This document shows positions 1 to 51,750 of a stretch of 64,000 nucleotides of DNA, piece by piece (position 1 is the stretch's first letter; every line of letters starts with the position of its first letter). The notes under the pieces were generated by a model. The model was given only the letters and a program-made list of their open reading frames with translations, was not told the DNA's origin and did no database searches. The position numbers were made by a program, and so were the translations under genes. The DNA comes from Bdellovibrionota bacterium (GTDB lineage Bacteria > Bdellovibrionota > UBA1018 > CAUJDS01): contig CAUJDS010000011.1 of NCBI GenBank assembly GCA_963169695.1, positions 121,499 to 185,498 on the forward strand, read 5' to 3'.

Positions 1-73
1 GACGGCTGAGACAGAGATCGTATCTGAACATACCGAGCTCAGTCGAAGTACTTACGGCATCCTCAGAAAATTT

Positions 74-3000
74 ATGGAGGCGTCGGGTCTTGAAGTCTTA
101 CCCCGAAGTGCGCACGCTACCGTAGCGCCGTTTCAAGCACGTGTTCGAAGCATGCTCGATAAGCTGATGAAGCCCGAGGAGAAGGATGGCAAAGTCTATT
201 TTATCCTTGCCAATGATCCTTCGTTCAATGCCTATTTCATTCAACTCGATAAAAATACTCGCGTCGTCACCATCCACGCGGGACTCCTCGAAGGACTCGA
301 GAATGATGACGAACTTGCCTTTGTCCTTGGACACGAACTGGAGCACGGATGGTCGACGCTGGAGAAGTATGCGGAGGGTCTCCAGAGTGAAATGCGAAAG
401 AAACTTCTTCAACGCGTAGTAGAGAACGAAGTCGACGCCAAGTCGGTAGCTAAGAGAATGATCCCCGCCGGTTTCAATCCCTACTCTGCGGATGACGTCA
501 TTACGCGTTGGCGCAAGGCAGCGCCCGATCACCTCTCCAAAACGCATACCGCTACCAGCTCGCGTTCGGATACGATGAGCTTAGCTCTCACTGCAATGCG
601 GAAAACTGAAGGCATGGAACTTCCCTCTCCAGATCGACCTCGAGAGCGGAGAGTTATCGGAGCGATCAAAGATCGCTGGATCGAGCAGCAAGCGTACGTT
701 GATTATTTTGTGAAGGAGGCTGAAAAAGTAGCCACCATAGAGATTCGACGAGGCAACCACTTAGAATCAACCCTCAAAAACGAAGCGGTCACCAGCGCGT
801 TTGATAATCCTTCAATCGCCGATGCCATCAAAGATCGCAATGATTTGGGACGCATTGGCCACCAATGGACCAAGAGTGCGGGGGATCGTGTGGAACGACT
901 TCTTCCCTCCAGGATTTCCGAGAGAACTCGCGCGGACCTTGTCCTTAAAGCCCGATCTGAAATGGTAGCCAAGTGGACGGACGAGATCAATGCATGGGCG
1001 GGAGACCCAAGCCACCCACTATCCCCAAAGGATCTCGCTCGCGGGCTCGCGCTCCTTCACTACGATACGAAGCCGGAGGCAATGGACCTTGAATACACAG
1101 AGCGCGACATCAAGGACAATAAACAAACCATTGATGAAACACGGGAGAGATTGAAAGCCCCTGGGCGAACCCAAAAACAAATCAAGGAAGACGAAGATTT
1201 TCTTGAATACACACTGAAGAAACAAGAAGTAGATCAGACCAGACTAAGGCGCGCTCAGCAGCAACTGAAAGAAGCCAGGGTCCACGCCAAAGCTGTGCAG
1301 AAAAAAGCGGACGCTTTTCTGTCCAGCCACGCGGAAGCGCTTCTTCTCAAGACCGACTCACCCACTCGCATGGCCATGGCCCCTCTTCTATCTGCGCATC
1401 CTGACAAGGACCTACGCGCGCGCTACCTGCCTAGAGTATTGGAGCAATTTGTCAAAGACTTCTCTGCACTCGATGCCAACGCTCGATTCCGCACTCTCAG
1501 CAATATGGGGGTCTACACGAGTGCGCACGCTCCGGTCATTGAGTTGTTTCAAAGTGCTTACGCCCATCAGCCAGCTCGCGCCAAGAAACTCTACGCAGCC
1601 TTCTTACGCAGCATCGATCCGAGCAACTTCGATCACTGGCAGCATTTCCAGGCTTTTATGGAGTTGAGCAGCGGCTTTAAGCAAGAGCCGGGACTGCTAG
1701 AGACCCATAAGAGCGTCCTTCACGAAGCGGGCAAGAAGCTCTTGCAGGCATGGGCCACTGAAGATCCCTTTACGGATTGGAAGGATATTCCCTTCGTCGC
1801 ACTTCGCCGCACCCTAGAGGATCGCCGAGAAATTGGCTCACTGATGAGTACGGGGGTTTTTGAAAACGGGCTAGAAGGTCCCGAATACTTAGAGGCCAGG
1901 CGCCTACGAACCTTCAACCTTGTAAAGATCTATAGAAGCAGCCTTTCAGAGCCAGAAAAGCAACTCCTTTCAGAAGAGGATATTCGGGACTATGTCGCCT
2001 TATTTAGAACCAGAGAAACCAAGCTCCTGCCAGAAGAAGTGAGAAAGCTTCCTAAAGTCATTGACGCCCTTTTATCTCGATCCAAAAATCCCATCCATAT
2101 AAAATGGCTTGCCTTAGCAGCCGAGAGCTTCGCTGAAGAATGGTCGCTGTACCGATTGATGCAAGACTATGGGCCCCTCGATTCACCCACAAAAAAAGAG
2201 AAGTTCTTTCAATTCGTCTTAGCTTACGGATCTCAGATGAAGACCCGACGGGTCGTAGATATGTCACGCCCTCTCGCTGATCCGGATATGAAGGTCACTC
2301 TCGAGCTTACCGATTGGATGGCGAAAAATCACCCCCAAGAAACCTGGCTGATCAGAAAGATCCTTACCCCCTATGACATGGTCCATAGAACACCTTCATT
2401 GACTTCAGGAGACGAAACTCCGTTTTACAGAATGTTGAAGAACATCGACTACAAAGAAGTACGAGAGCGCAAACTCCATCTCGAAGCCAACACGTTCAAG
2501 AAGCACTACCGGTCTTATGCTAAGCTTGGTCCTCGAGAGAGAGCACTGAGGAGTCTCCAAGCCACCGCCACTGAACTGAAACTTGAAGAGGTCCCTGCGG
2601 AAATATTCCAATGGCTCAATGCTGAAGGTTCTACGAAGCACCGGGCTCAGACACTCCTTGGAATGCTGGACTGGTCTGAAGTTGAGAATGCGCTCAAAGA
2701 CTTCCCTTTCAAGCAGGTGGTAGAAGGCGTCGCCGAGATCCTCAATCAGCCGCCACTTCATGGCCGGGGCAACGAAATTGAGCTTGCAGAAGCCTTTGTT
2801 CTTGCCTCAGTCAAAAGCAGAAAAAGCACTCGACAAACGGAGGAAATCTTTGAAGACCTCTGGAAGCGGGGTGAGAAATTACCTAAGCTGCGTGAGGTAC
2901 TCACTGACGAGAAGCTCTTGCCTTTCCTCACGCGCCACGCGCATCGAGAGCGTGTCGTCAAGGGCATCCTCTCGCGTGAGCTCGGAGTCTCTTGGAAACC

Positions 3001-4939
3001 CGTAAGAAATCGCCAGGCTGGGATTGCACTGGCGCCAGATAATCAGAAGTCCCAAAGAGAGGTGGTCAAGAAGAGTCGCGATCTCATCGAAAAGCTTCTG
3101 ACTAAGCCCTCGCCTCTCCGTGATGGAATCCTCGAAGACCTTGGCAATGCCTTGCTCACCAATGCCGCCGAAACGGACTATCTCTTCCAACACAAGATCT
3201 CACTTGAGAGGTGGGAGAGTATCGAAGGACTCGAAGCGCTCGATGCGCCCCAACATATTCGCAATATGCAAAAGCCCGACGAGCAACTGGCCCTGCTCGA
3301 ATACCTCACTCAGCAAATTGACTACCCAGAAGCTGCTCGTCGAATCAAAATCCATGAATGGCGGGAACCGGAGGCTATAGAAGCCGGCCTCAAACTCACG
3401 AGCGGAAACTTTCGGGACGCGCAGCCGTTGGTTCGCACTTATGTCTTGATGTCACTCTTGGATCCACAGAAAGGACTCCTCGCTCAGGCTGAAACCGCTG
3501 AACGAGTCTACGAAATGATCCTTGGCCCCAAAGCCTCTCGCTCGGTGCTTTCTGAGGCAGTATTTCGGGCCTATATGAAGGCACTCCCTGCTCCCGATCA
3601 GCGAGTGATCCTTGCAGGTCTTGTCGCCACTTTTACGGATCGTCCACGCGGCGCGAGCGGTGTATCGCTCAAGTCTATTTTGGAATCACTGGGCCCCATC
3701 GGCGTAAAGGCGGGGCAGTTCTTTCGTACGAGTGGTCTTGCTCCAAAGAAATACCACTCGGAACTCGATGACCTCTTCTCCCAAGCAATCCCTCCAACCA
3801 GAAAAGAAGTGATGGACCGCATGAGGAGGATCTATGGCAAGGACCTGGTTGATGTAGATCGAATCTATCACCTGCTTGGATCGGGATCGATCAACTACGT
3901 GGTATTGGCGGACATCAGGGATCCCACAACGGGAGTGGTTCGCCCGGTCGCCGTACGCTTTATGAGAGACAAAGTAATTGGCCAGATCCGCAACGAAGAA
4001 ACGCTATGGAAGAAAGTCACGGCGGAACTGAACGCTCACAGTGATCCCCATGTTCGTGCTTTTTCAGGACACGTCCAAGAGGCACTGAACTCTTCGATGG
4101 AAACACTACGCGAGGGCGGTAGCGAAGTGGACCTCATCAAGGACCGAGAACTGTCTCTCATTGCTAACCAAGGCTATGGTCAAGCCCATGCTCGATCCAG
4201 CGGATATGCGATTGAAGCGCTGTCCTTTGACAATCTCTTGCAGATGCAAGTGCCCGCAGGCGAGGCGAAGACATCTTCCATCCTCCCATTTGTGGACGCA
4301 ACAGAGATCCATGATGTTCAAGACGCTAAAAAACTCTCTCAAGACATACTTGACGCCGAGCTTCGCGCGATCTTTGAGGTCGGCGTCTTCGATCCCGACG
4401 GCCACCCAAAGAATTGGCTGGTTGACGCCAAAGCCAAGAAGCTCTATCGAATCGATACTTCGCAACTCAAGAGAGTCGAAGCCACTGAGCGAGAGAATCT
4501 TAAGAGAGTCTTTGCTTTTCTGCTTCAACCGTCACCTGGCAAAGCAGACCTCCGAGCGATGGCTCCTGCTCTAGAATCGATCTTCGACACCAAGGTCAAT
4601 GCCCTCGCCCTTCAAAACAGCGTCAAACAAGTCGTGGGATCGCCGGGCTACCGAAATAAAGCCAATCCTCTTGAGCGAATATTTTTTCTGAGGGACAAAG
4701 TCACAGAAATCCTGAAGTCTCAGGGGCTCATCAAAGACGACCTTATTTTTTCGAAACAGATTCGATGGGTCAATATGAGCCTGTCCAAACTCAATCTCTA
4801 TCGAGAAAGAGTTGGAAACCTCGCCTTCCTACAGGCTTTGGCCAATGCCACCAAGGCTTCAAAGACTCGAATCGCTCTGGGCTATGGCAAGAATCTCTTA
4901 AAACGCTGCCTTCTGCTACGCCTCAACGATGATCCTTGA
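74..4939 (+). CDS. Very large (1621 aa) multidomain protein: N-terminal M48-like Zn-metallopeptidase module, long alpha-helical/charged middle region, C-terminal ABC1/UbiB-type atypical kinase domain
   Basis: Single 4.9-kb ORF. The N-terminus 'FNAYFIQLDKNTRVVTIHAGLLEGLENDDELAFVLGHELEHG' matches the M48 (HtpX/Ste24-type) core 'NAFA..vvvtsGLL..L.n.dELaaVLaHElgH', including the HExxH. Around aa 1200-1480, 'LGPIGVKAGQFFRTSGL...LLGSGSINYVVLADIRDPTTGVVRPVAVRFMRDKV' and 'FDPDGHPKNWLVDAKAKKLYRIDTSQL' match ABC1/UbiB kinase motifs (iAaASiaQVHrA..dG..VAVKvqrP and HaDpHPGNilv....l.liDfG). No signal peptide or TM segment is evident. Confidence 0.6.
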   Translation: MEASGLEVLPRSAHATVAPFQARVRSMLDKLMKPEEKDGKVYFILANDPSFNAYFIQLDKNTRVVTIHAGLLEGLENDDELAFVLGHELEHGWSTLEKYAEGLQSEMRKKLLQRVVENEVDAKSVAKRMIPAGFNPYSADDVITRWRKAAPDHLSKTHTATSSRSDTMSLALTAMRKTEGMELPSPDRPRERRVIGAIKDRWIEQQAYVDYFVKEAEKVATIEIRRGNHLESTLKNEAVTSAFDNPSIADAIKDRNDLGRIGHQWTKSAGDRVERLLPSRISERTRADLVLKARSEMVAKWTDEINAWAGDPSHPLSPKDLARGLALLHYDTKPEAMDLEYTERDIKDNKQTIDETRERLKAPGRTQKQIKEDEDFLEYTLKKQEVDQTRLRRAQQQLKEARVHAKAVQKKADAFLSSHAEALLLKTDSPTRMAMAPLLSAHPDKDLRARYLPRVLEQFVKDFSALDANARFRTLSNMGVYTSAHAPVIELFQSAYAHQPARAKKLYAAFLRSIDPSNFDHWQHFQAFMELSSGFKQEPGLLETHKSVLHEAGKKLLQAWATEDPFTDWKDIPFVALRRTLEDRREIGSLMSTGVFENGLEGPEYLEARRLRTFNLVKIYRSSLSEPEKQLLSEEDIRDYVALFRTRETKLLPEEVRKLPKVIDALLSRSKNPIHIKWLALAAESFAEEWSLYRLMQDYGPLDSPTKKEKFFQFVLAYGSQMKTRRVVDMSRPLADPDMKVTLELTDWMAKNHPQETWLIRKILTPYDMVHRTPSLTSGDETPFYRMLKNIDYKEVRERKLHLEANTFKKHYRSYAKLGPRERALRSLQATATELKLEEVPAEIFQWLNAEGSTKHRAQTLLGMLDWSEVENALKDFPFKQVVEGVAEILNQPPLHGRGNEIELAEAFVLASVKSRKSTRQTEEIFEDLWKRGEKLPKLREVLTDEKLLPFLTRHAHRERVVKGILSRELGVSWKPVRNRQAGIALAPDNQKSQREVVKKSRDLIEKLLTKPSPLRDGILEDLGNALLTNAAETDYLFQHKISLERWESIEGLEALDAPQHIRNMQKPDEQLALLEYLTQQIDYPEAARRIKIHEWREPEAIEAGLKLTSGNFRDAQPLVRTYVLMSLLDPQKGLLAQAETAERVYEMILGPKASRSVLSEAVFRAYMKALPAPDQRVILAGLVATFTDRPRGASGVSLKSILESLGPIGVKAGQFFRTSGLAPKKYHSELDDLFSQAIPPTRKEVMDRMRRIYGKDLVDVDRIYHLLGSGSINYVVLADIRDPTTGVVRPVAVRFMRDKVIGQIRNEETLWKKVTAELNAHSDPHVRAFSGHVQEALNSSMETLREGGSEVDLIKDRELSLIANQGYGQAHARSSGYAIEALSFDNLLQMQVPAGEAKTSSILPFVDATEIHDVQDAKKLSQDILDAELRAIFEVGVFDPDGHPKNWLVDAKAKKLYRIDTSQLKRVEATERENLKRVFAFLLQPSPGKADLRAMAPALESIFDTKVNALALQNSVKQVVGSPGYRNKANPLERIFFLRDKVTEILKSQGLIKDDLIFSKQIRWVNMSLSKLNLYRERVGNLAFLQALANATKASKTRIALGYGKNLLKRCLLLRLNDDP

Positions 4940-5015: not shown

Positions 5016-5462
5016 CTATCGATTCTCTTTGCACTGAGGGTTGGTGCAAGAAAAGCCTGATTTGTCTTCTTTCATACATTTTCTTTCCACTTCTTTCTGA
5101 GCTTCCAGAAGCGTTGCTCCAAAAGCAAAGTGAGACTTTTCAAAGTTTTTAATTTCGCAAAAGAAAGGTCGAGCTGAATCGGCATTTTGAATATTGACTT
5201 GCACCTGCTGGACGGATGTAGGCCTCGATCCAAGGCCTGTTTGGTATCCATCGCGATAACCTTTCAGCGTCGCCTCTTTGGTAGCATCCGGACACGGCGA
5301 GAAGTACATGCTATTCATGGGATGCCCAGCCGTTGCGTCGTTGACTCCTTTTTCGTAACCCGCGTTGGCGTTGCAGGTCGTCGCTTCATAGCTTTTTTCC
5401 ATCGCAGCACAACCACCCATGGATAGAACCATCAAGAAACTCAATATTCTTAGCAACATCAT
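5016..5462 (-). CDS. Small lipoprotein, function unknown
   Basis: N-terminal hydrophobic segment ending in the lipobox 'LSMGGC'. The 148-aa product is Cys-containing. It lies in an intergenic gap with no better competing ORF. Confidence 0.5.
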   Translation of the reverse strand: MMLLRILSFLMVLSMGGCAAMEKSYEATTCNANAGYEKGVNDATAGHPMNSMYFSPCPDATKEATLKGYRDGYQTGLGSRPTSVQQVQVNIQNADSARPFFCEIKNFEKSHFAFGATLLEAQKEVERKCMKEDKSGFSCTNPQCKENR

Positions 5463-5578: not shown

Positions 5579-5917
5579 CTATTTGACTGTTAGGATCGCA
5601 CCCAAACCATTAGCAATCCTATCCCCGGCTTCATCATAGCTATAGGTGGACATCAACTTTCCACCCTCAACCACCAGTATTTTTGAGCCCACTAGAACGT
5701 AGTTCAAGCGACTTGGCGGACTGCCAAAAAAAGTATTGTCGTTGTCAGTCATCACATCATCTTTAAAAGATACACAATGGTCTCTCTTTACGGGAGGCTC
5801 ACCAAACGGTCCTGAAGTCTCCACAGAGCGACAGAAATTCTTTCCATCTAACTCCCCGGCAAAAACTATTGCAGAAAATGAAATCACGCAAAATATCGCG
5901 GCCAATTTCTTCATCAT
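5579..5917 (-). CDS. Small secreted protein, function unknown
   Basis: 112-aa ORF with a signal peptide 'MMKKLAAIFCVISFSAIVFAGE'. Confidence 0.45.
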   Translation of the reverse strand: MMKKLAAIFCVISFSAIVFAGELDGKNFCRSVETSGPFGEPPVKRDHCVSFKDDVMTDNDNTFFGSPPSRLNYVLVGSKILVVEGGKLMSTYSYDEAGDRIANGLGAILTVK

Positions 5918-9419: not shown

Positions 9420-10595
9420 CTAAGAAAACCCTGCGACCAGGGCTTCTTCGAAATCTCGTAGGGGAAGTATTTCGATTCCTTCAGCAGTCATTTGCTTTGA
9501 GTCTCCTGAGTATACAAGCACTCTTTTTTTTACGCCCTTCAATGCAGCAATGGATTGAAGACCCCTGAGGTGTTCCGGTCGAATCTTCTTGGATGCCTTT
9601 ACTTCAATGGCAAAGAGGTCTCTCCCAGACTTAAGAAGAAAATCAACTTCGGTCTGCCCTTTGGAAGGTGCCCAGTAAAACACCTCGTCGTAACGACGAG
9701 CATTCTCGATTTCGTTTCGGATCATCGCAAATACAAATCCTTCCAAAAGACTCCCTCGCTCTTCGGGCGCGAGAGTTCCATAGACCCCCTTTGCAGCCCG
9801 AACAATTCCCGGATCGACCCAGTAAAGCTTCGGTTTCTTTTTTTCTCGAACAGTAATCTTGGCCTGGTACGGTTGAAGCCTTTTTATGAGGAGAGTATCT
9901 TCAAGAATCTGCAGGTATCCTTCGACGGTCTTTCTTTCAATTTCGACATCTCGTGCGAGACTGGACACATTGACTACTTGTCCATGGTACAGCGCGGCCA
10001 CAGGAACACTCCTCGCAAAACCAGCCAAGTTTCTGACCAACGCTTCCGCTTGAATTTCCTCGCGGATATAAAGCTGGACATAATCCTTGAGAGCCTCGTC
10101 TCTATTTTCTTGATCCCATACCAAAGGAATACTTCCCCACCGAAGAACGCTATCAAGATCGAAGTCAGATCCTAGCTCTCTTGGCAAAAGTGGCAGCATA
10201 GAACGCAACTTAGCCCTGCCTGCAAGAAGATTCACTCCAGCACGATTAAGCTTTCTGGCACTTGAGCCCGTGAGAGCAAACCTCAATCCACCGTCTTCAA
10301 TTCCTCGATGAACCTCGTTCAGCAAATTGGGTAGACGCTGTACTTCATCCACCACTACCCAAGAACCCGGTTTGAGATGTCGGATTCGATTTCTAAATGC
10401 CTCGGGGTCTACCAGGAGGTTCTGGTAGAGTCCTTCGTCCAAAAAGTTGAACCAATGTGCCTGAGAGAAGTGCTCTTTTAACCAGGTGCTCTTCCCCGTT
10501 CCCCTTGCACCAAAGAGGAAGAAGGAACCTTCTGGAGGCAAAATCGTTCGTGAGTACATCACTTCCATTATTAGTCGCATTTTGGAACTATACAA
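9420..10595 (-). CDS. COG1373-family AAA+ ATPase (AAA_14 + DUF4143 architecture), paralog A
   Basis: Walker A 'FLFGARGTGKST' and Walker B 'WVVVDEVQRL'. The conserved 'LTGSSARKL..AGVNLLAGRA' block is typical of COG1373 ATPases. Protein identity to the ORF at 13909..15060 is about 55-60%. Confidence 0.85.
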   Translation of the reverse strand: MYSSKMRLIMEVMYSRTILPPEGSFFLFGARGTGKSTWLKEHFSQAHWFNFLDEGLYQNLLVDPEAFRNRIRHLKPGSWVVVDEVQRLPNLLNEVHRGIEDGGLRFALTGSSARKLNRAGVNLLAGRAKLRSMLPLLPRELGSDFDLDSVLRWGSIPLVWDQENRDEALKDYVQLYIREEIQAEALVRNLAGFARSVPVAALYHGQVVNVSSLARDVEIERKTVEGYLQILEDTLLIKRLQPYQAKITVREKKKPKLYWVDPGIVRAAKGVYGTLAPEERGSLLEGFVFAMIRNEIENARRYDEVFYWAPSKGQTEVDFLLKSGRDLFAIEVKASKKIRPEHLRGLQSIAALKGVKKRVLVYSGDSKQMTAEGIEILPLRDFEEALVAGFS

Positions 10596-11935: not shown

Positions 11936-13354
11936 ATGGATAAGTCTAAGAGCGAGGGACATCTTAAGCCGACCTGCATTTTCCCATTTTTAGGGACACT
12001 CCTCCTCTTCTCGTGTACACATCCAGGTAAGGTTTCCACGGAAAGGGATGATGCTTTTCCGCTTCACGATTCACCAGCAGACTATCAGTCCCCTTCCGAA
12101 AGCCTTCGCCTGTATTTTGAAACAATTGAAAAGGCCAACCTTCTTTCCAAGGCAAAGAAGAACCGTTTAAGTTCCGAGGAGCAAAGGTTCTTGAGTGCTG
12201 CAGCTTTTCTTCTGCAAGAGCAGTTAAAACTCGAATCGCAACTCAAACAGAAAAAAGAGATCGAAATTCTTCCCGGTCGCTCCTATTCGTTTGCACTGGA
12301 GTCATTCTGTGTCAATTCTGGAAAGGAGCGGCCGATACCAGGTGATGGATTCCGACTTGGTTCCCTAAAAGGAGCATCTGAGGAATGGTTGCCACTGATA
12401 CTTGATGGATATTTCGACAAAAAAATTCCGCAAGAGCGGATTCAGATTCTGATTTGGGCGCTTTTGTCCGACTCTCGATTTGATGAACTAACGCCGACAC
12501 AGCAAGCTGACCTTCTAAGACTTGTCCCAAATGCGAGAATGCGATTCGGAAACCGGCGACTTAAAAACGCTGCAAAAAGTATTCTAGATGATCTACTGCC
12601 AGATGAAGTCAGGGATCTGCAAAGTCGTTTTGAAAACCACCGCTTGATTCTGCGTGATGTATCCCAAACCTATAAGGAAATCTCTGAATTACTGGCGCCC
12701 ATTCCGACCCGAAATCAATCAATTGAGCAAGGGTGGATAAAGGTTCATTTGGGCTATTTGGCTCGAGTGAGCTCAATTACCGGATACTCTTCCGTGAGAC
12801 TCGAAATCTTTATGCCTCTAGGTGTGGATCCGCTCCTTCGTCCTTCTAAATACATCGCACTACCCGGCTCGGGGCAGCGATTAGCACTGAGCGCCAATGT
12901 AATTCCATTTTGGCATGCTCCTTATCGAGAGATCACCGATAGGCTGGCAAACTTGGGGGCGGGGCGTGAACTATCCAAGGCCGAACAAGACCTGATCCGA
13001 AAGTATCCCCTCGATGCGTACAAAGCTTACTCCAATTCTCTTACGGCGACTGAAAGTGCGCTAAAACACTTTCCTCAATTTCCAATCCCTCACAATAATC
13101 CAGCCGATGCTTTTCGCCATTTTGTCTGGGCTGCACTGAATACAAAGGATTTGGGCGCTTCTCGAGCGCGAGAATTTTTAGAAGCCCATGAAGATCGGCC
13201 CAACCAACCTAAAGGCGAGGCCGAAATCGATCGCTGGAATAACGAAAAAGGAATTGAAACGGCTGAAATACTCGGATCCCTTGCGACATTAACCGATTTC
13301 GAGAAAGCAGGTCTTGATGCACTTCAAAAGCAAGAACTTAGGACCTTGCGATGA
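11936..13354 (+). CDS. Lipoprotein with a conserved C-terminal domain (candidate secreted effector/toxin), function unknown
   Basis: The lipobox 'LLLFSC' follows a hydrophobic N-terminus. The C-terminal block 'NNPADAFRHFVWAALNTKDLGASRAREFLEAHEDRPNQPKGEAEIDRWNNEKG' looks like a conserved catalytic-type module. Its stop overlaps the start of the next gene (ATGA). Confidence 0.5.
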   Translation: MDKSKSEGHLKPTCIFPFLGTLLLFSCTHPGKVSTERDDAFPLHDSPADYQSPSESLRLYFETIEKANLLSKAKKNRLSSEEQRFLSAAAFLLQEQLKLESQLKQKKEIEILPGRSYSFALESFCVNSGKERPIPGDGFRLGSLKGASEEWLPLILDGYFDKKIPQERIQILIWALLSDSRFDELTPTQQADLLRLVPNARMRFGNRRLKNAAKSILDDLLPDEVRDLQSRFENHRLILRDVSQTYKEISELLAPIPTRNQSIEQGWIKVHLGYLARVSSITGYSSVRLEIFMPLGVDPLLRPSKYIALPGSGQRLALSANVIPFWHAPYREITDRLANLGAGRELSKAEQDLIRKYPLDAYKAYSNSLTATESALKHFPQFPIPHNNPADAFRHFVWAALNTKDLGASRAREFLEAHEDRPNQPKGEAEIDRWNNEKGIETAEILGSLATLTDFEKAGLDALQKQELRTLR

Positions 13355-13908: not shown

Positions 13909-15060
13909 TCAAACCAATCCCGTTTTCAGTTCATCCGAAAATTGCTGAAATCCCATAACTTCAATCCCATCGCTCGTCTCTTGATGCTCGACTGAGGGAT
14001 AGACAAGAATCCGGCGCTTTAACTTTGGAAGATCCCCAATAGACTTCAGACCAGCAAGGTCATCCTTGCGAAGGCGCTCACCGGACTTGACTTCCACTGC
14101 AGCAAACTTTGAATGGGCTTTCACAATAAAATCTACTTCCAGATCCGGCGTACCCCAATAGGATATTTCGTCTATCGTCCCTTGATAATACTGAGCGGAT
14201 CGCAGTAGCATAAAAACAAGTCCCTCAAAAAGCGGGCCCCTTTCCGTAGCAACCAAGGGACCCCAGTCCTCCCGAATGGCACGTACCAAACCCGGATCTA
14301 CCCAATAAAACTTTGGATGCCTCCTCTCTTTCACTCTTAGGCCAGACTCAAAGGGGTACAGGAGCTTTCCTAAAAGGGTGTCTTCTAAAATAGAAAAATA
14401 ATTTTCTACCGTCGGGCGTTTCACAGCTGCATCACGCGCCACAGAAGACAAACTGAGCGTCTGCCCATGAAGGAGAGCACTCACCTTCAAAAATCTCAGA
14501 AAGCTTGGAAGATCCTTAACAAGTGCTTCGGTTTGGATTTCGTCTCGGATATAAGTTTGAACATAGGCTTTGAGTCGCTCTTTCTTGTCCTCAGAGGCAA
14601 ATACAATCGGCAAGGAGCCAAATCTAAGGATCTGGTCAAGATCAAAGTCCTTCCCCAATTCTTCGGGCACAAAGGGAAACATCAGTTTGGACAATGCTCT
14701 ACCTGCAAGCAGATTGACCCCGGCACGCTTCATTTTGCGCGCACTCGATCCAGAGAGCGCAAACTTCAATTGCTTGTTCTCGATCCCCCAATGAACTTCA
14801 TTCAGCAAGGAAGGAAGCCGTTGAACTTCATCGATCCAAACCCAGTCTCCTGCCTTCAGAACTTGAATCTTAGAACGAAATAATCCAGGTTCACTCGCAT
14901 AGCGTATGAATAACTCCTGTGAAAGCAGGTCCACATGCAGAGCGGGGCGTAGGTGTTCTTTGAGGAACGATGTCTTCCCGGACCCTCGTGGACCAAAAAG
15001 AAAAAAGCTCGTATTTGGGAGCTCAAAAAGTCTTCCGTACATGAAATCTATTTTATCCAC
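13909..15060 (-). CDS. COG1373-family AAA+ ATPase (AAA_14 + DUF4143), paralog B
   Basis: Walker A 'FLFGPRGSGKTS', Walker B 'WVWIDEVQRL' and the 'LSGSSARKMKRAGVNLLAGRA' block are present. It is collinear with the 9420..10595 product along its whole length. Confidence 0.85.
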   Translation of the reverse strand: MDKIDFMYGRLFELPNTSFFLFGPRGSGKTSFLKEHLRPALHVDLLSQELFIRYASEPGLFRSKIQVLKAGDWVWIDEVQRLPSLLNEVHWGIENKQLKFALSGSSARKMKRAGVNLLAGRALSKLMFPFVPEELGKDFDLDQILRFGSLPIVFASEDKKERLKAYVQTYIRDEIQTEALVKDLPSFLRFLKVSALLHGQTLSLSSVARDAAVKRPTVENYFSILEDTLLGKLLYPFESGLRVKERRHPKFYWVDPGLVRAIREDWGPLVATERGPLFEGLVFMLLRSAQYYQGTIDEISYWGTPDLEVDFIVKAHSKFAAVEVKSGERLRKDDLAGLKSIGDLPKLKRRILVYPSVEHQETSDGIEVMGFQQFSDELKTGLV

Positions 15061-27908: not shown

Positions 27909-29498
27909 CTACTTTGCCTGAGTTGCGCTGGGACCCGCGGGACTATTAAGGGAGCCTATTACTGAGGCTGAGTTCATCTTACTCTTCTGATTCGAAACTT
28001 TTGGTGAATCGATCGATGGAGCATGCAATGAGGCTTCTATTTTTCCAATGGTTTTGAGCAGAATTGAGAGCTCACTTATAGCTACAGGATCTTTCTCTCG
28101 AACTTTATTGATCTGAGCTTGGTAGCCGAGCTCCGCTTCTTTGACTGAAACATTGTAACCCTTCGCGATTGCCCACATTATGGCTGGCAGAATCGTAGGA
28201 TTATCCTGAATGTAGGGTAAGGCGGCAATTTCTTTAAGGGATAGAAGTAGAGATCCAATCTCAGTTGTCTCTAATTCAGAAAGCTCTAAGGCGCTCGCAA
28301 CTTTATCTTTGTCACCTATAAAGCGCTTTTTCATTCTCATGCTATCGAGAAGAAAATGCTCAAAGACAGAGTGAGTGTCTTTTTTTCTGTTTTGCTTTGG
28401 ACTCAGGGCCGCAAACTTTGCAGCCGCAAGAAACTCAGGATCGGCCTTGATTTCTTCGGACAAGATCTTTTCATACTGTTTCTTAAATTCCATATCGGAA
28501 CGATTTGCGAGATAGATGAAATAGGAAGGCCCCGCCACCGCCCCATTATCCATTAACAGGTTCATTATCTGCGGAAGTCTAGTGGGAGCTGCAGAATCAA
28601 GGGGTGTTCTACCGAATTCGTCCTTCGCATTTACCGTCGCCCCATTATCGATTAACAGCCTTACCATGCTTTCATCTGCTGAAAAAGCTGCTCCATGAAG
28701 GGGCGTTGTACCTGAATTACTCTTAACGTTTACCTTCGCTCCATTCTTAATCAACAGGTTTACTATTGCCAAGTTACCTTTAAGGACGGCTCGGTGAATT
28801 GGAAAGACTCCGCTAATGTTCTGCGCAGATGCGACTGCACCCTTTTCTATTAGGAGAGCAACTGCGTCTAATTTTCCGGCATTGACTGCTTCGTGAAGTG
28901 GCGTGTCACCCTCGGCGTCTTTGGCGTTGACGTCCGCGCCCTTTGAGATCAGTAAGTTTATCGTTTCGAGACTGCCTTCGTGAGCTGCGAAGTGAAGGGC
29001 TGATTGTCCACTAAAATCTCTGACGTCTACATCCATTCCTTTTTTAATCAACAATTCAGCTGCTTTGGCCTTTCCTGCTCCAGCAGAACTATGAAGAACC
29101 GTTTCACCATACACATTCGATTTGCCTTTAAATTCTACGCCAACACTCATCAGCAGGATTAATGTGTCAATTTGACCCGCACGAGCTGCATAGTCCAGCA
29201 CCGTATCGCCACGAACGTCGCTGGCGGTTAGGTCTGCTCCGTTTGAAATTAATCGCATAACTATATTAGCACTCCCTTCGCTAGAAGCGCGAAATAGAGG
29301 TGAATCGCTACTGTATGAAAGGCTATTAATACTAGCGCCTGAATGAATCGCGGCGTTAACTCTTTTTTCATCTTTTGCCTCAATAGCGTACCTTAGCTCA
29401 CTCTGGAGTGCTTCCTTCTCGTCAGTGACTTGAGCATGAGCGAAAGTAGTCAAAAGGAGAAATCCCAGACTGGCACAGCAAACTCTTGGAGGTATCAT
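27909..29498 (-). CDS. Secreted ankyrin-repeat protein
   Basis: Signal peptide, then about 9 ANK repeats such as 'GDTPLHEAVNAGKLDAVALLIEKGA' and 'GTTPLHGAAFSADESMVRLLIDNGA'. There is a non-ANK C-terminal region. Confidence 0.85.
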   Translation of the reverse strand: MIPPRVCCASLGFLLLTTFAHAQVTDEKEALQSELRYAIEAKDEKRVNAAIHSGASINSLSYSSDSPLFRASSEGSANIVMRLISNGADLTASDVRGDTVLDYAARAGQIDTLILLMSVGVEFKGKSNVYGETVLHSSAGAGKAKAAELLIKKGMDVDVRDFSGQSALHFAAHEGSLETINLLISKGADVNAKDAEGDTPLHEAVNAGKLDAVALLIEKGAVASAQNISGVFPIHRAVLKGNLAIVNLLIKNGAKVNVKSNSGTTPLHGAAFSADESMVRLLIDNGATVNAKDEFGRTPLDSAAPTRLPQIMNLLMDNGAVAGPSYFIYLANRSDMEFKKQYEKILSEEIKADPEFLAAAKFAALSPKQNRKKDTHSVFEHFLLDSMRMKKRFIGDKDKVASALELSELETTEIGSLLLSLKEIAALPYIQDNPTILPAIMWAIAKGYNVSVKEAELGYQAQINKVREKDPVAISELSILLKTIGKIEASLHAPSIDSPKVSNQKSKMNSASVIGSLNSPAGPSATQAK

Positions 29499-48978: not shown

Positions 48979-50502
48979 ATGAATCCCCTTATCAGTCAGC
49001 GCGGATTCGCGGCCATTGAAGCTTTGATCGCTGCTGCGGTTTTACTCACTGCGGCTGCTGCAGTAGGAACTTTTTCACAATGGTTCGGAAATACCAATAA
49101 ACGAATTTCTGACGCCAATGATATCAGTAATTTTGCATCCGATCTGACTCGAATTGCTGGATTTCCAGCGACTTGCTCCAGCGCCCTCCCACCCAATCTC
49201 TCCTATAATTTAGAGTCCGGAGAAGTCTCTGGCATCGTGATTTTGGATCCCAGTCATCCTGACATCAACCACCCGCGGTACGACGTAGGAAAAAAGGTAG
49301 GAAAGCATCTTCAAATTTCTGAAATCACACTCAAAGTGATCACTCCTCCTCCTGTCACAACGAATTTCAGTATTGGCGCTGATGGAAGCGCGACCTTTAT
49401 AACTTCTCCTACCCCTTCTTGGGTTATTGCAGGCCATACACTTGCCAATGGTCAGTCTTACACCTCAACATCTACCGGCATTCGATACATTAATATTGAC
49501 CAAGCTTTATACAAGCAGGAACTCGGTGTTGGAGGTGGTGGCGGAGGTGGAGTTGGTACGCCCGATGCTATGAGAAATCCGCACTTAGAAGACCCCCTTT
49601 ATTTTACCTGGCAACCTAGGGTTATTGCTGTTGTGGCTGCTACGGAAGGTGGCTCGCCACCCCCTGAGGGAGAAGGTGGCGGCACCGTCTATACGGTTAA
49701 CGACCAGGTGACAAGCCAGGAAGCCCTTACTGCCAATCCCGTTGCCAATGTGGCAATGACATTAGTGGCAACTGCGCCAAACTCCAAATTTACCGTACAG
49801 GCCAAATTAGACGCTTCCGTTATTGATACGCGCACTCAACAATTGACCCGAAAAGTGAGTCAAACCATCTATGTCGACATTGAAGCTACGGGCAGTACTG
49901 CCATACTAAAAGGCTGCTCCCAATGGTCAGGCCAAATTGCCAGTACAGTCTGCACCACTGTAGGTGGCATCAAAACGGCATGGGGGGCTTGCGATCGTTC
50001 TTCGTTCTATCGAGAAAAAATCTATCAGCCACTTTGTGCCGCATACAATGGCACCTTTCAGCCACCCAATGGCAGCGGTGTTGGAGAATGCCAGTTTGGC
50101 AATACGAGTTTCCGCGGAATTGCGATGGCCTCTTGCACAAAGAATGAAGACTGTGAATCGGGCGTATGCGACCCCAAGACTCTGCAGTGTACAGGTACAT
50201 TGACTTGTAAAGACTCTGGCGCAAGCTGCGACCCTGCGGCACCAAACAACGACGGCTGTTGCTCCAATCAGTGCCGAGAAAAGGAACAAGGATCTGGTAC
50301 GTTTCAATGCGGAAAACGAGATGCTGGAATATACGGCGCAGCTTGCAGCGACAACTTTGACTGCACTTCCAATAATTGTACTGAACAAAATTACTGCGGG
50401 CTACCGCTTTGCGTTGCTGTACAGGGTACCTGCAATAAAAGTTCGGATTGTTGTGCCGGCAATACCTGCCAAAATGGAGCTTGCAGGCGGCCTGAAATTT
50501 AA
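48979..50502 (+). CDS. Prepilin-type N-terminal cleavage/methylation domain protein with a Gly tract and Cys-rich C-terminal domain (putative pilus-tip or minor pilin adhesin)
   Basis: 'MNPLISQRG|FAAIEALIAAAVLL' is the canonical G|F...E5 prepilin signature. A 'VGGGGGGGVG' tract lies mid-protein. The last ~150 aa hold about 24 Cys in repeated modules: 'CTKNEDCESGVCD', 'CSDNFDCTSNNC' and 'CNKSSDCCAGNTCQNGAC'. Confidence 0.7.
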   Translation: MNPLISQRGFAAIEALIAAAVLLTAAAAVGTFSQWFGNTNKRISDANDISNFASDLTRIAGFPATCSSALPPNLSYNLESGEVSGIVILDPSHPDINHPRYDVGKKVGKHLQISEITLKVITPPPVTTNFSIGADGSATFITSPTPSWVIAGHTLANGQSYTSTSTGIRYINIDQALYKQELGVGGGGGGGVGTPDAMRNPHLEDPLYFTWQPRVIAVVAATEGGSPPPEGEGGGTVYTVNDQVTSQEALTANPVANVAMTLVATAPNSKFTVQAKLDASVIDTRTQQLTRKVSQTIYVDIEATGSTAILKGCSQWSGQIASTVCTTVGGIKTAWGACDRSSFYREKIYQPLCAAYNGTFQPPNGSGVGECQFGNTSFRGIAMASCTKNEDCESGVCDPKTLQCTGTLTCKDSGASCDPAAPNNDGCCSNQCREKEQGSGTFQCGKRDAGIYGAACSDNFDCTSNNCTEQNYCGLPLCVAVQGTCNKSSDCCAGNTCQNGACRRPEI

Positions 50503-50514
50503 TGGAATCACCTC

Positions 50515-51750
50515 ATGAACCCTAAAAGGATTTCATTCAACTCCGGTCAAACACTCCTACAAACCGTCGTCGCAATGGGCGTCATGAGTTTCGTCGCAGC
50601 TCTCATGATGGACTATACGTTTCGAGAATCTGCCAACGTCCAATCACAAATGGAACGTACTGCGGCAGTCGATGGAGCCGGTCAACTCGTCGATCTAATT
50701 CTTGAAAATACCAATGCCTGCACCTACGCACTTCAGGGGCAATTCATAACCTCCCCGCGAATTCATCTCTTTACCCAAAACACCAAGACTCAAGACCCAA
50801 GTGCTCGCCTACCACTGTATTGGCAGGGACAGAAACTTTCTCCCAATTGGAGAATCACGGGCCTTTCTTTTACTCAGGGAGTCCCAGACGGCATTATGTT
50901 AGACACCACACCCGTCAATGCCTACGGAAGGTATCAACGGAATAAAGCCGAAATATCCGATCACTGGCCATTCAAACTCACGCTAGAGACTTACGTTGCA
51001 GATGGTAGCTATCTAACGCTCAACCCAACAACCCTGAACTGGGAGCATCGGGACAATGGAGATACCTTGCTTGCTACTTTTATCAATACATCGCAAAATA
51101 TCGTGCTCTATGATGGAGCTCCGGGAGCCAAGACTACGATCTATCGACCCGGACCAAGCGGCTCGGGGCTTATGGTTCATCAGATCGGAATCTACTATCT
51201 CCCAAAAAATACCTCTGCCAATAGTGGAGTTGTCAAACTTGAAGACGCGCTTGTGCCCCAACCCATTCAGAACACCGCTACGACGCTGAACCTTCAAGTC
51301 ACCCGTACGGGCATTGGCACCGGAATACCACAGGTCAATCATGCTACCCCTGTCAATCTCACAGTCGTAGCGGGAGCCCAGATTCTCTGGTGCAATGCCT
51401 TGACTCAGGGAAATAAGACCGTGAATCAAATCGCCTGTGAGCAAGTAAGTGGTGCTTACTCTGCAGTCAACGACTCCTGCGACACTACGTGGAATAAAGA
51501 CTTTATGGCACTCTATGCTTGCGGTACTTTGCCCACTAGCGTCCGCAATGTGGTCGTGGATGGGAAGCAGACCAACACCTGTTTCGAAATGTTTTCTCCT
51601 TGCTATCGAGATTGGTGGATCGACAAATGGAACCGCTATGGCGCCGACATCCTCACCTCCAATTCCATTCCGCTAGAAATCCTAGGAGAGTTTATGGCCT
51701 ATGTATCCATCTTTGGACTCAATGTCTGTCCACTAGCTGCCGGCGGCTAA
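50515..51750 (+). CDS. Type IV pilin/pseudopilin-like protein (PilW/PilX-like minor pilin candidate)
   Basis: 'MNPKRISFNSG|QTLLQTVVAMGVMSFVAAL' is a prepilin-like leader followed by a hydrophobic helix. Confidence 0.5.
   Translation: MNPKRISFNSGQTLLQTVVAMGVMSFVAALMMDYTFRESANVQSQMERTAAVDGAGQLVDLILENTNACTYALQGQFITSPRIHLFTQNTKTQDPSARLPLYWQGQKLSPNWRITGLSFTQGVPDGIMLDTTPVNAYGRYQRNKAEISDHWPFKLTLETYVADGSYLTLNPTTLNWEHRDNGDTLLATFINTSQNIVLYDGAPGAKTTIYRPGPSGSGLMVHQIGIYYLPKNTSANSGVVKLEDALVPQPIQNTATTLNLQVTRTGIGTGIPQVNHATPVNLTVVAGAQILWCNALTQGNKTVNQIACEQVSGAYSAVNDSCDTTWNKDFMALYACGTLPTSVRNVVVDGKQTNTCFEMFSPCYRDWWIDKWNRYGADILTSNSIPLEILGEFMAYVSIFGLNVCPLAAGG

Follow-up and report, generated by a model that had tools for sequence, protein, structure and literature searches.

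We analysed a giant gene at the left edge of a 64,000-nt stretch of DNA from a Bdellovibrionota bacterium (GenBank assembly GCA_963169695.1, contig CAUJDS010000011.1, positions 121,499 to 185,498 of the forward strand; this whole stretch is referred to as the window). It is one real gene for a predicted Sec-exported multidomain protein of ~1,645 residues after removal of the signal peptide. The parts of the protein follow each other in the order of signal peptide, M48 peptidase domain, ~930-residue helical stretch, UbiB/COQ8-fold domain, and a short tail that holds the sole cysteine. The protein belongs to an undescribed family centred on Bdellovibrionota, and literature searches turned up no paper on a fusion of M48 with ABC1, on a UbiB-like protein that is exported or on an ABC1 protein of Bdellovibrio. 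What is new here is the domain architecture together with a UbiB subfamily that has altered hallmarks and a new (predicted) cellular location, both made from two known folds; judged from the sequence, our claim is limited to that architecture and that subfamily.

The gene and its family

1 to 4939, plus strand: giant open reading frame (ORF), 5' end cut by the window edge, stop codon TGA at 4937-4939

A preliminary description of this DNA, like the ORF listing, had given the gene as 1,621 codons at 74 to 4939 (plus strand). The frame is indeed single and open down to the TGA at 4937-4939, but the ATG at 74 is not the start and the real protein (P0001) has 1,666 aa. Translation showed that the frame is open already from window base 2, upstream of ATG 74, which encodes an internal methionine (M46). 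The true start is an ATG 62 nt upstream (left) of window base 1, read on an 11.9-kb Logan contig (L001, 2546-2607), where it is preceded by GAGAAGAGGGG. Residues 1-21 of P0001, the signal peptide MVRNLWALLFLFGIGTWHSYA, lie outside the window and window bases 2-73 encode residues 22-45; the 45 residues left out of the preliminary description begin with MVRNLWALLFLFGIGTWHSYA followed by TAE. An identical protein was retrieved by the word-indexed protein search, and the collection records give the identical 1,666-aa product on the Logan contig and on the 185-kb NCBI contig.

Relatives were collected by an exhaustive HMMER search with a profile of the C-terminal 700 residues against 1.84 billion cluster representatives, which produced 1,020 matches at E ≤ 1e-3, 445 at E ≤ 1e-10, and 121 at E ≤ 1e-30. 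The domain counts were drawn from the best 150 of the 1,020 matches. Among these best 150, 104 representatives are at least 1,400 aa in length, and relatives with the full-length architecture are present: in 85 of the 104, an M48-like and a kinase-like domain follow each other as in P0001, and the rest are mostly fragments. The same layout, with an N-terminal HExxH and a D[PA]D[GR]HxGN catalytic loop, was found in a divergent sister clade of 1,500-2,700 aa (P0122-P0153). The word-indexed searches under-reported the family, with 6 matches for the whole protein (five relatives) and 3 for the kinase profile, and missed known relatives of the query.

Strong matches to the long protein were detected at 17 loci among 185,579 species genomes (one genome per species). 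Twelve of the 17 loci are in metagenome-assembled genomes (MAGs) labelled Bdellovibrionia, Bdellovibrionota, Bacteriovoracaceae, Pseudobdellovibrionaceae or Oligoflexia; the remaining five are labelled Elusimicrobia (2), Nitrospirales, Pseudomonadota and "bacterium". Single MAGs may hold two or three loci (paralogues). The TopA protein encoded in the window is 61-63% identical to the closest named TopA proteins, which come from Bdellovibrionales/Bdellovibrionota MAGs.

The N-terminal M48 peptidase domain

50 to 697, plus strand: soluble BepA/3C37-type M48 zinc-peptidase domain, P0001 residues 38-253 (Pfam M48, family profile, AlphaFold2)
332 to 346, plus strand: HELEH (H132, E133, H136), the zinc-binding and catalytic HExxH, invariant in 16/16 N-domains
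413 to 436, plus strand: RVVENEVD (R159, E162, E164, D166), equivalent of the M48 R-x-x-E-x-x-A-D motif, aligned to 3C37/BepA
545 to 565, plus strand: HTATSSR (H203, R209), equivalent of the M48 HP-x4-R C-terminal motif, aligned to 3C37/BepA

The N-terminal domain is predicted to be a complete soluble M48 zinc endopeptidase in which every catalytic motif is intact. The Pfam model Peptidase_M48 (PF01435) matched with E 2.7e-9 and 37.6 bits against a cut-off of 20.3 bits, and the match covers profile positions 8-75. It ends at the HExxH; the remainder of the domain was revealed through a family profile (A4) made from 16 family N-domains, i.e. 6 database proteins and 10 genome loci. Searched against the PDB, profile A4 matched 3C37, a whole soluble M48 peptidase, with E 4.4e-14 and BepA with E 5.5e-9. 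The HExxH in an M48 context, noticed in the preliminary description, was thus borne out by the Pfam and A4 matches. Pfam M48 was found in 15/16 and in 24/27 family members in two member sets.

Downstream of the HExxH, RVVENEVD aligns with REYENQAD of 3C37 and NEQEAD of BepA. An R-x-x-E-x-x-A-D type motif bears the third zinc ligand in M48 peptidases. The last motif, H-T-x-x-S-S-R in the family, aligns with THPLTSER (3C37) and THPLPESR (BepA). H132, E133, H136, E162, E164, D166, H203 and R209 are invariant in all 16 family N-domains, and the zinc-binding residues (H132, H136 and the downstream E162) are therefore intact. In the AlphaFold2 (AF2) model of residues 22-963, the M48 core is the sole confident part, with a predicted local distance difference test (pLDDT) score of 80-90 against a whole-model mean of 58. 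The best PDB fold matches of this model were BepA structures 6ait and 6sar, with a probability of 0.99 but an E of 4e-3.

The preliminary description started from the premise of M48 peptidases as polytopic membrane proteins. This premise is not applicable to the present domain, which goes with the soluble periplasmic branch (BepA, 3C37). It was assigned to that branch because ~25 residues are missing after the HExxH and nothing hydrophobic is found there; the spacing from the HExxH to the Glu motif amounts to ~25 polar residues. The membrane-embedded M48 types HtpX, Ste24 and Oma1 were considered and rejected on the same grounds, there being no hydrophobic insert near the active site, and the NCBIfam HtpX equivalog models scored only 12-15 bits, far below their cut-offs of 245-355.

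The C-terminal UbiB/COQ8-like domain

3494 to 4915, plus strand: UbiB/COQ8-type atypical kinase-like domain, residues 1186-1659 (AF2, Foldseek, hhalign, Pfam)
3692 to 3718, plus strand: GPIGVKAGQ, counterpart of GPIFIKFGQ in P0009, with the KxGQ motif of the N-terminal lid that is specific to UbiB
3878 to 3895, plus strand: GSGSIN, Gly/Ser loop at the site of the Ala-rich loop (ASAS/AAAS in UbiB), by alignment
3956 to 3958, plus strand: R1340 at the invariant beta3 lysine site (VAVK to VAVR), aligned to the K of AVAIKILRP in P0009
4118 to 4147, plus strand: GSEVDLIKDR with the alphaC Glu equivalent E1396, aligned to GDELDQMREA of P0009
4382 to 4462, plus strand: catalytic loop GVFDPDGHPKNWL (D1487, N1492) and metal-binding RIDTS (D1506, DFG equivalent), by hhalign

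The C-terminal domain is a distant branch of the UbiB/ABC1 family and not a UbiB orthologue. The NCBIfam UbiB model (TIGR01982) matched residues 1176-1325 of the window ORF with E 2.9e-9, at 36 bits against an equivalog cut-off of 487.55 bits. Pfam ABC1 matched residues 1410-1481 of the window ORF with E 0.0033, and its scores of 17.1-19.5 bits are below the 22.9-bit cut-off; over the family, ABC1 matches 18 of 21 kinase domains with a best E of 5.5e-10. The AF2 model of the last 703 residues has a mean pLDDT of 80. When this model was compared with the PDB by Foldseek, the nine best matches were all UbiB-family proteins (COQ8A, MSMEG_1954, Rv3197) and ordinary protein kinases ranked below them. 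COQ8A entries 7udq, 4ped and 5i35 came first (E 5e-9 to 6e-8; template-modelling score 0.64-0.65 normalised by target, the range over the COQ8A matches being 0.60-0.65), followed by MSMEG_1954 and Rv3197 (E 1e-7 to 4e-6). In hhalign, the family profile aligned with a canonical UbiB protein (P0009) at a probability of 97.9% and E 5.5e-13. A hidden Markov model search of the PDB with the kinase-domain profile gave nothing significant and missed COQ8A, the relation being visible only via the fold search and hhalign.

The hhalign alignment with P0009 shows which hallmarks of the UbiB family are kept. In the KxGQ motif of the lid the Q is invariant and the K position is occupied by K in 82 and R in 17 sequences. 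The Ala-rich loop ASASVAQVH of P0009 corresponds to GSGSINYVV, and among 104 aligned sequences the first G of GSGS is kept in 100, the first S in 88, the second G in 98 and the second S in 96. AVAIKILRP corresponds to PVAVRFMRD, so that Arg stands at the beta3 Lys position; of 105 family sequences, 92 have Arg there, 5 have Gln and 5 have Lys. In the sister clade P0122-P0153 the position is more often Lys (11/32), the alignment being less certain there. The Lys-to-Arg change at beta3 is a classic kinase-dead change. The alphaC position is E in 100 of 107 sequences. The catalytic loop and metal-binding segment, GVFDPDGHPKNWL and RIDTS, align with GFFHADMHPGNILV and ALDFG of P0009 (GFFHADMHPGN with GVFDPDGHPKN, and ALDFG with YRIDTS). 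D1487, N1492, D1506 and E1396 hardly vary in more than 100 sequences whose overall identity is only 20-30%. We argue against a decayed pseudo-enzyme, because the active-site Asp, Asn, Asp and Glu are conserved among so many divergent sequences.

The ABC1/UbiB kinase domain proposed in the preliminary description therefore holds at the level of fold and family (COQ8A as best fold match, 97.9% in hhalign), whereas two hallmarks, the beta3 Lys and the Ala-rich loop, have changed. The sequence blocks quoted in its support are absent as written: "AaASiaQVH...VAVK" reads GSGSINYVV and VAVR, and "HaDpHPGN...DfG" reads FDPDGHPKN and RIDTS. As to the integrity of the kinase catalytic residues, the alphaC Glu, the catalytic Asp and Asn and the metal-binding Asp are in place and the beta3 Lys is replaced by Arg.

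ABC1 proteins are defined by the KxGQ domain and an Ala triad, and the KxGQ lid is specific to the family (PMC8956952). ADCK3 gains kinase activity when an Ala of the triad is mutated to Gly (A339G; PMC8956952); by alignment, the family described here appears to bear Gly naturally at this position. COQ8 is an ATPase in which ATP hydrolysis drives the extraction and handover of isoprenoid lipid intermediates (PMC13418538).

The helical region between the two domains

698 to 2827, plus strand: poorly conserved all-alpha region, residues 254-963 (AF2, low confidence)
2828 to 3493, plus strand: family-specific conserved helical region, residues 964-1185, preceding the kinase-like domain

The two domains are separated by ~930 residues that are all-helical in the AF2 model and contain no recognisable domain, which agrees with the ~1000 charged, helix-prone residues of the preliminary description. 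Two long helices at residues ~363-471 of the model may form a coiled-coil-like hairpin. The last ~220 residues of the region (964-1185) are conserved family-wide and were modelled confidently by AF2 together with the kinase domain; R1040, E1078, W1092, D1102 and R1166 are invariant or nearly so. No Pfam families other than M48 and ABC1 were detected in 27 full-length members. With the middle region as query, the fold search gave no significant match and the sequence-profile search of the PDB gave compositional coiled-coil matches only.

Predicted export and the C-terminal lone cysteine

The giant protein is predicted to be exported by a Sec-type signal peptide. The N-terminus of P0001 has a basic start, a hydrophobic core and small residues at -3/-1, i.e. 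the pattern of a Sec signal peptide. Relatives were examined by a home-made hydrophobic-segment heuristic, applied to 59 full-length relatives with an M48 domain starting at residues 20-110 and, as a control, to 119 TopA sequences. A signal-peptide-like N-terminus was detected in 47/59 relatives and in 8/119 of the cytoplasmic TopA controls; this difference and the signal peptide of P0001 are the reasons for the export prediction. The uncharged segment is short, with a median of 18 residues, and the listed N-termini show small residues at -3/-1 (e.g. SYA/T and AQA/D). Mean net charge is +1.5 before the hydrophobic segment and -1.0 after it, the N-terminal side being the more positive one in 41/47 sequences; by the positive-inside rule, this charge bias suggests that the bulk of the protein is translocated.

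P0001 contains one cysteine in 1,666 residues (0.06%), compared with 0.885% in the 38 other ORFs of the window (binomial P ~6e-6), and the family mean is 0.2%. Such depletion fits an oxidising compartment or passage through the outer membrane. Extreme cysteine depletion is more typical of proteins that cross the outer membrane. Taken with the heuristic signal-peptide call and the charge bias, it would place the kinase domain off the ATP-containing side, unlike that of UbiB. The protein is not simply the "soluble giant" of the preliminary description, as it and 47/59 relatives carry a Sec-type signal peptide.

4907 to 4936, plus strand: C-terminal tail CLLLRLNDDP, with C1657 the sole cysteine, then a short basic amphipathic tail

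C1657 lies ten residues from the end of P0001. A cysteine 8-25 residues from the C-terminus occurs in 70 of 93 members with a complete C-terminus, against a chance expectation of 3.6%, and in ~35 members it is the only cysteine of the listed sequence. In the sister clade a near-terminal cysteine was found in 19/25 sequences. Hydrophobic residues peak at +1, +3/+4 and +7 after the cysteine and basic residues at +2, +5/+6 and +9/+10. The whole tail is missing in ~15 M48-bearing members, e.g. P0003, P0012 and P0013. The tail may be a dimerisation helix locked by a disulfide, an amphipathic helix that binds membranes, a ligand of the M48 zinc in a cysteine switch, or a sorting signal. Ste24-type CaaX processing of the C-terminal cysteine was rejected on two counts: the tail after the cysteine has 5-25 residues, not 3, and the M48 domain is BepA-like.

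Function and alternative explanations

As a tentative interpretation, we favour an exported enzyme with two activities aimed at the envelope or at prey, in which BepA-like cleavage is combined with a UbiB-like domain that handles metal-phosphate and lipid. Bdellovibrionota are best known for bacteria that prey on other bacteria. The protein would act outside the cytoplasm of the producer, in the periplasm, at the cell surface or in the prey. Its M48 domain would resemble BepA in cutting proteins of the envelope or proteins associated with membranes. The UbiB-like domain would still bind a metal-phosphate ligand; COQ8 and other UbiB proteins suggest by analogy that it might handle a membrane isoprenoid or other lipid, or link nucleotide turnover with a change of conformation. 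The periplasm contains no ATP, and a catalytic role would for this reason imply a nucleotide derived from prey contents or another phosphate donor. The results have no bearing on the regulated protease-kinase scaffold suggested in the preliminary description.

Several points weigh against this interpretation. The signal-peptide test was the home-made heuristic and not SignalP. A minor subclade lacks the export traits: P0006 and P0069 have normal cysteine contents (0.65-1.03%), no signal peptide and no Cys tail, and the ORFs of the Nitrospirales-labelled locus L015 and the Pseudomonadota-labelled locus L016 have no obvious signal peptide and kinase domains that resemble P0006. P0006 and P0069 may be a cytoplasmic form, with which L015 and L016 appear to group; on account of this subclade, the fusion is not bound to export and can also exist in a form that is probably cytoplasmic. 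With no ATP in the periplasm and Arg in place of the beta3 Lys, the kinase-fold domain may be non-catalytic. No secretion system, immunity gene or partner was found as a conserved neighbour at 13 loci. All relatives come from MAGs of uncultured carriers, whose predation is assumed from taxonomy.

The main alternative, which we consider rather unlikely, is a housekeeping periplasmic quality-control protease, i.e. an oversized BepA in which the UbiB-like domain would be an ATP-independent lipid or ligand sensor or a docking module. In its favour, no recognisable outer-membrane secretion signal accompanies the signal peptide; the nearest solved relatives of the N-domain (BepA, 3C37) are periplasmic, the chromosomal neighbours (icmF-like, topA, leuS) are housekeeping genes, and a sensor would be compatible with the absence of ATP from the periplasm and with Arg for Lys at beta3 in 92/105 sequences. 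The near-invariance of the catalytic Asp and Asn and the metal-binding Asp in more than 100 divergent sequences is, however, unusual for a pseudokinase. The gene is also rare and patchy, with 17 loci in 185,579 species genomes and paralogues in single MAGs, whereas a core function would be more widespread, and the extreme cysteine depletion points rather to outer-membrane crossing.

An improbable alternative is a self-latching zymogen, in which the C-terminal cysteine would bind the M48 zinc, either intramolecularly or across a dimer, and the UbiB-like domain would release it once lipid or nucleotide is bound. Among zinc proteases, matrixins and adamalysins are established cases of latency by a cysteine switch. 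A lone near-terminal cysteine in 70/93 members against 3.6% by chance, often the only one in more than 1,500 residues, speaks for a latch, and the sister clade combines the same trait (19/25) with an N-terminal HExxH. On the other hand, ~15 members keep an intact HExxH and have no tail, none of the models (the halves have one each) shows the tail close to the M48 site, and the heptad-like hydrophobic/basic pattern of the tail fits a dimerising or membrane-binding helix equally well.

Still less probable is a cytoplasmic or inward-facing membrane-anchored protein, in which the N-terminal segment would serve as an anchor and the kinase domain would see cytoplasmic ATP. Canonical UbiB/COQ8 proteins are membrane-anchored with the kinase domain on the ATP side (in part after PMC13418538), and the minor subclade without signal peptide has normal cysteine contents. 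The positive-before, negative-after charge in 41/47 sequences and the strong cysteine depletion argue against this topology, and the short uncharged segment (median 18) with small -3/-1 residues points to export. At a similarly low level of probability stands an exported self-latching attack machine that joins the zymogen to predation: nucleotide that leaks from prey would let the UbiB-like domain, through its conserved Arg and Gly-rich loop, grip or extract an isoprenoid membrane lipid (e.g. a quinone or undecaprenyl phosphate), the cysteine would leave the M48 zinc, and proteolysis of the prey envelope would follow. If this were true, no earlier UbiB-family protein would have been seen to work outside the cytoplasm, and no earlier M48 peptidase to have a cysteine switch.

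An artefact, i.e. two unrelated genes fused by mis-assembly or a missed stop, has virtually no probability given the identical 1,666-aa product on the Logan and NCBI contigs and the same domain order in MAGs of many studies and in the sister clade; the assembly chimera raised in the preliminary description is refuted because the fusion is kept in 85/104 long representatives from independent assemblies.

Genomic neighbourhood and length variants

Upstream of the giant gene lies a divergent icmF-like gene; its other neighbours are two small exported ORFs, which are downstream and convergent, and topA. All-against-all comparison of ORFs of at least 80 aa within 7 kb on each side found no gene family common to more than 3 of 13 loci; since the flanking genes are not shared between loci, there is no operon partner to lean on. 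The divergent upstream gene (L001 3-2450, minus strand), which lies outside the window, encodes a fused B12-binding/MeaB GTPase/methylmalonyl-CoA-mutase protein (IcmF-like). Two small ORFs without Pfam match converge on the giant gene, one at 5016-5462 (minus strand) with a lipoprotein-like signal (…LSMGGC) and one at 5579-5917 (minus strand) with a signal-peptide-like N-terminus; neither is conserved beside homologues elsewhere. No paralogue of the giant gene and no RNA genes were found within the window, and the promoter and terminator scans of the window remained at chance level.

Some relatives are longer than P0001. In an Elusimicrobia-labelled groundwater MAG (L008 2-25048), the M48-helical-UbiB module lies inside a frame without interruption, which exceeds 8,349 codons and extends past the 25-kb locus on both sides. 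In the Pseudomonadota-labelled MAG (L016 7043-14962), the module makes up the C-terminal portion of an ORF of 2,640 aa. Outside the module, these two ORFs contain no Pfam domains. P0005, P0017, P0018, P0033, P0038, P0065 and P0075 have 150-300 extra residues after the kinase-like domain, and most of these seven share a recurring "…VGFPD…Q.GFE.FGV…" motif in this extension.

Elsewhere in the window, two paralogous AAA_14 + DUF4143 ATPase genes at 9420-10595 and 13909-15060 (both minus strand) flank a DUF6973-containing ORF at 11936-13354 (plus strand). The gene at 27909-29498 (minus strand) encodes a 529-aa protein that is largely ankyrin repeats (Ank_2, E 3.7e-49), which is unusual for a free-living bacterium. 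A 507-aa ORF at 48979-50502 (plus strand) has 26 cysteines (5.1%) and no Pfam match, and the adjoining ORF at 50515-51750 has no match either.

Significance and comparison with known systems

Proteins of the UbiB/COQ8 type are ancient and widespread and have links to disease, and what they do biochemically was debated for decades. More recent evidence favours an extraction of isoprenoid lipids that is driven by ATP (PMC13418538). The family described here may be regarded as a natural experiment, an exported branch that keeps the catalytic Asp/Asn/Asp and has Arg for Lys and Gly/Ser for the Ala-rich loop. Because this branch is exported to where ATP is normally lacking, and its hallmarks are altered, it can show which parts of the fold serve ligand handling and which serve phosphotransfer. 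With its tie to a BepA-type protease in a phylum known above all for predators, the family may also mark an unrecognised class of envelope-directed effectors.

The closest known systems for the N-terminal half are BepA (YfgC) of E. coli and 3C37, an M48 peptidase of Geobacter. Both are likewise exported, non-membrane M48 proteins with HExxH, the downstream R-x-x-E-x-x-(A/V)-D motif and the H-x5-R motif, and BepA also has a helical region after the peptidase. The ~25 residues between HExxH and the Glu motif in BepA and 3C37 are absent here and appear as alignment gaps. The giant protein is not a BepA orthologue: it has four times the length and a kinase-fold domain at its end, and no tetratricopeptide repeat domain, which BepA has, was detectable by Pfam in P0001 or 27 relatives.

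With UbiB, COQ8A (ADCK3) and ABC1K the C-terminal half shares the bilobal kinase fold, the KxGQ lid, the alphaC Glu, the D-x-H-P-G-N-type catalytic loop and the metal-binding Asp. It differs from UbiB/COQ8A in the Arg for the beta3 Lys, the GSGS in place of the Ala-rich loop, family scores under the Pfam and NCBIfam cut-offs, the heuristically predicted Sec signal peptide, and the fusion to a protease; no hydrophobic C-terminal anchor is apparent by inspection. Rv3197 and MSMEG_1954, mycobacterial UbiB-like ATPases with the bacterial UbiB fold, lack a protease domain. They are cytoplasm-facing membrane proteins with C-terminal transmembrane helices and the canonical lysine. The Fam20C-type secretory kinases and the kinase-fold effectors of pathogens resemble the giant protein in concept only, as kinase folds outside the cytoplasm of the producer; to our knowledge these are unrelated kinase-fold families, none of them UbiB-like or fused to M48.

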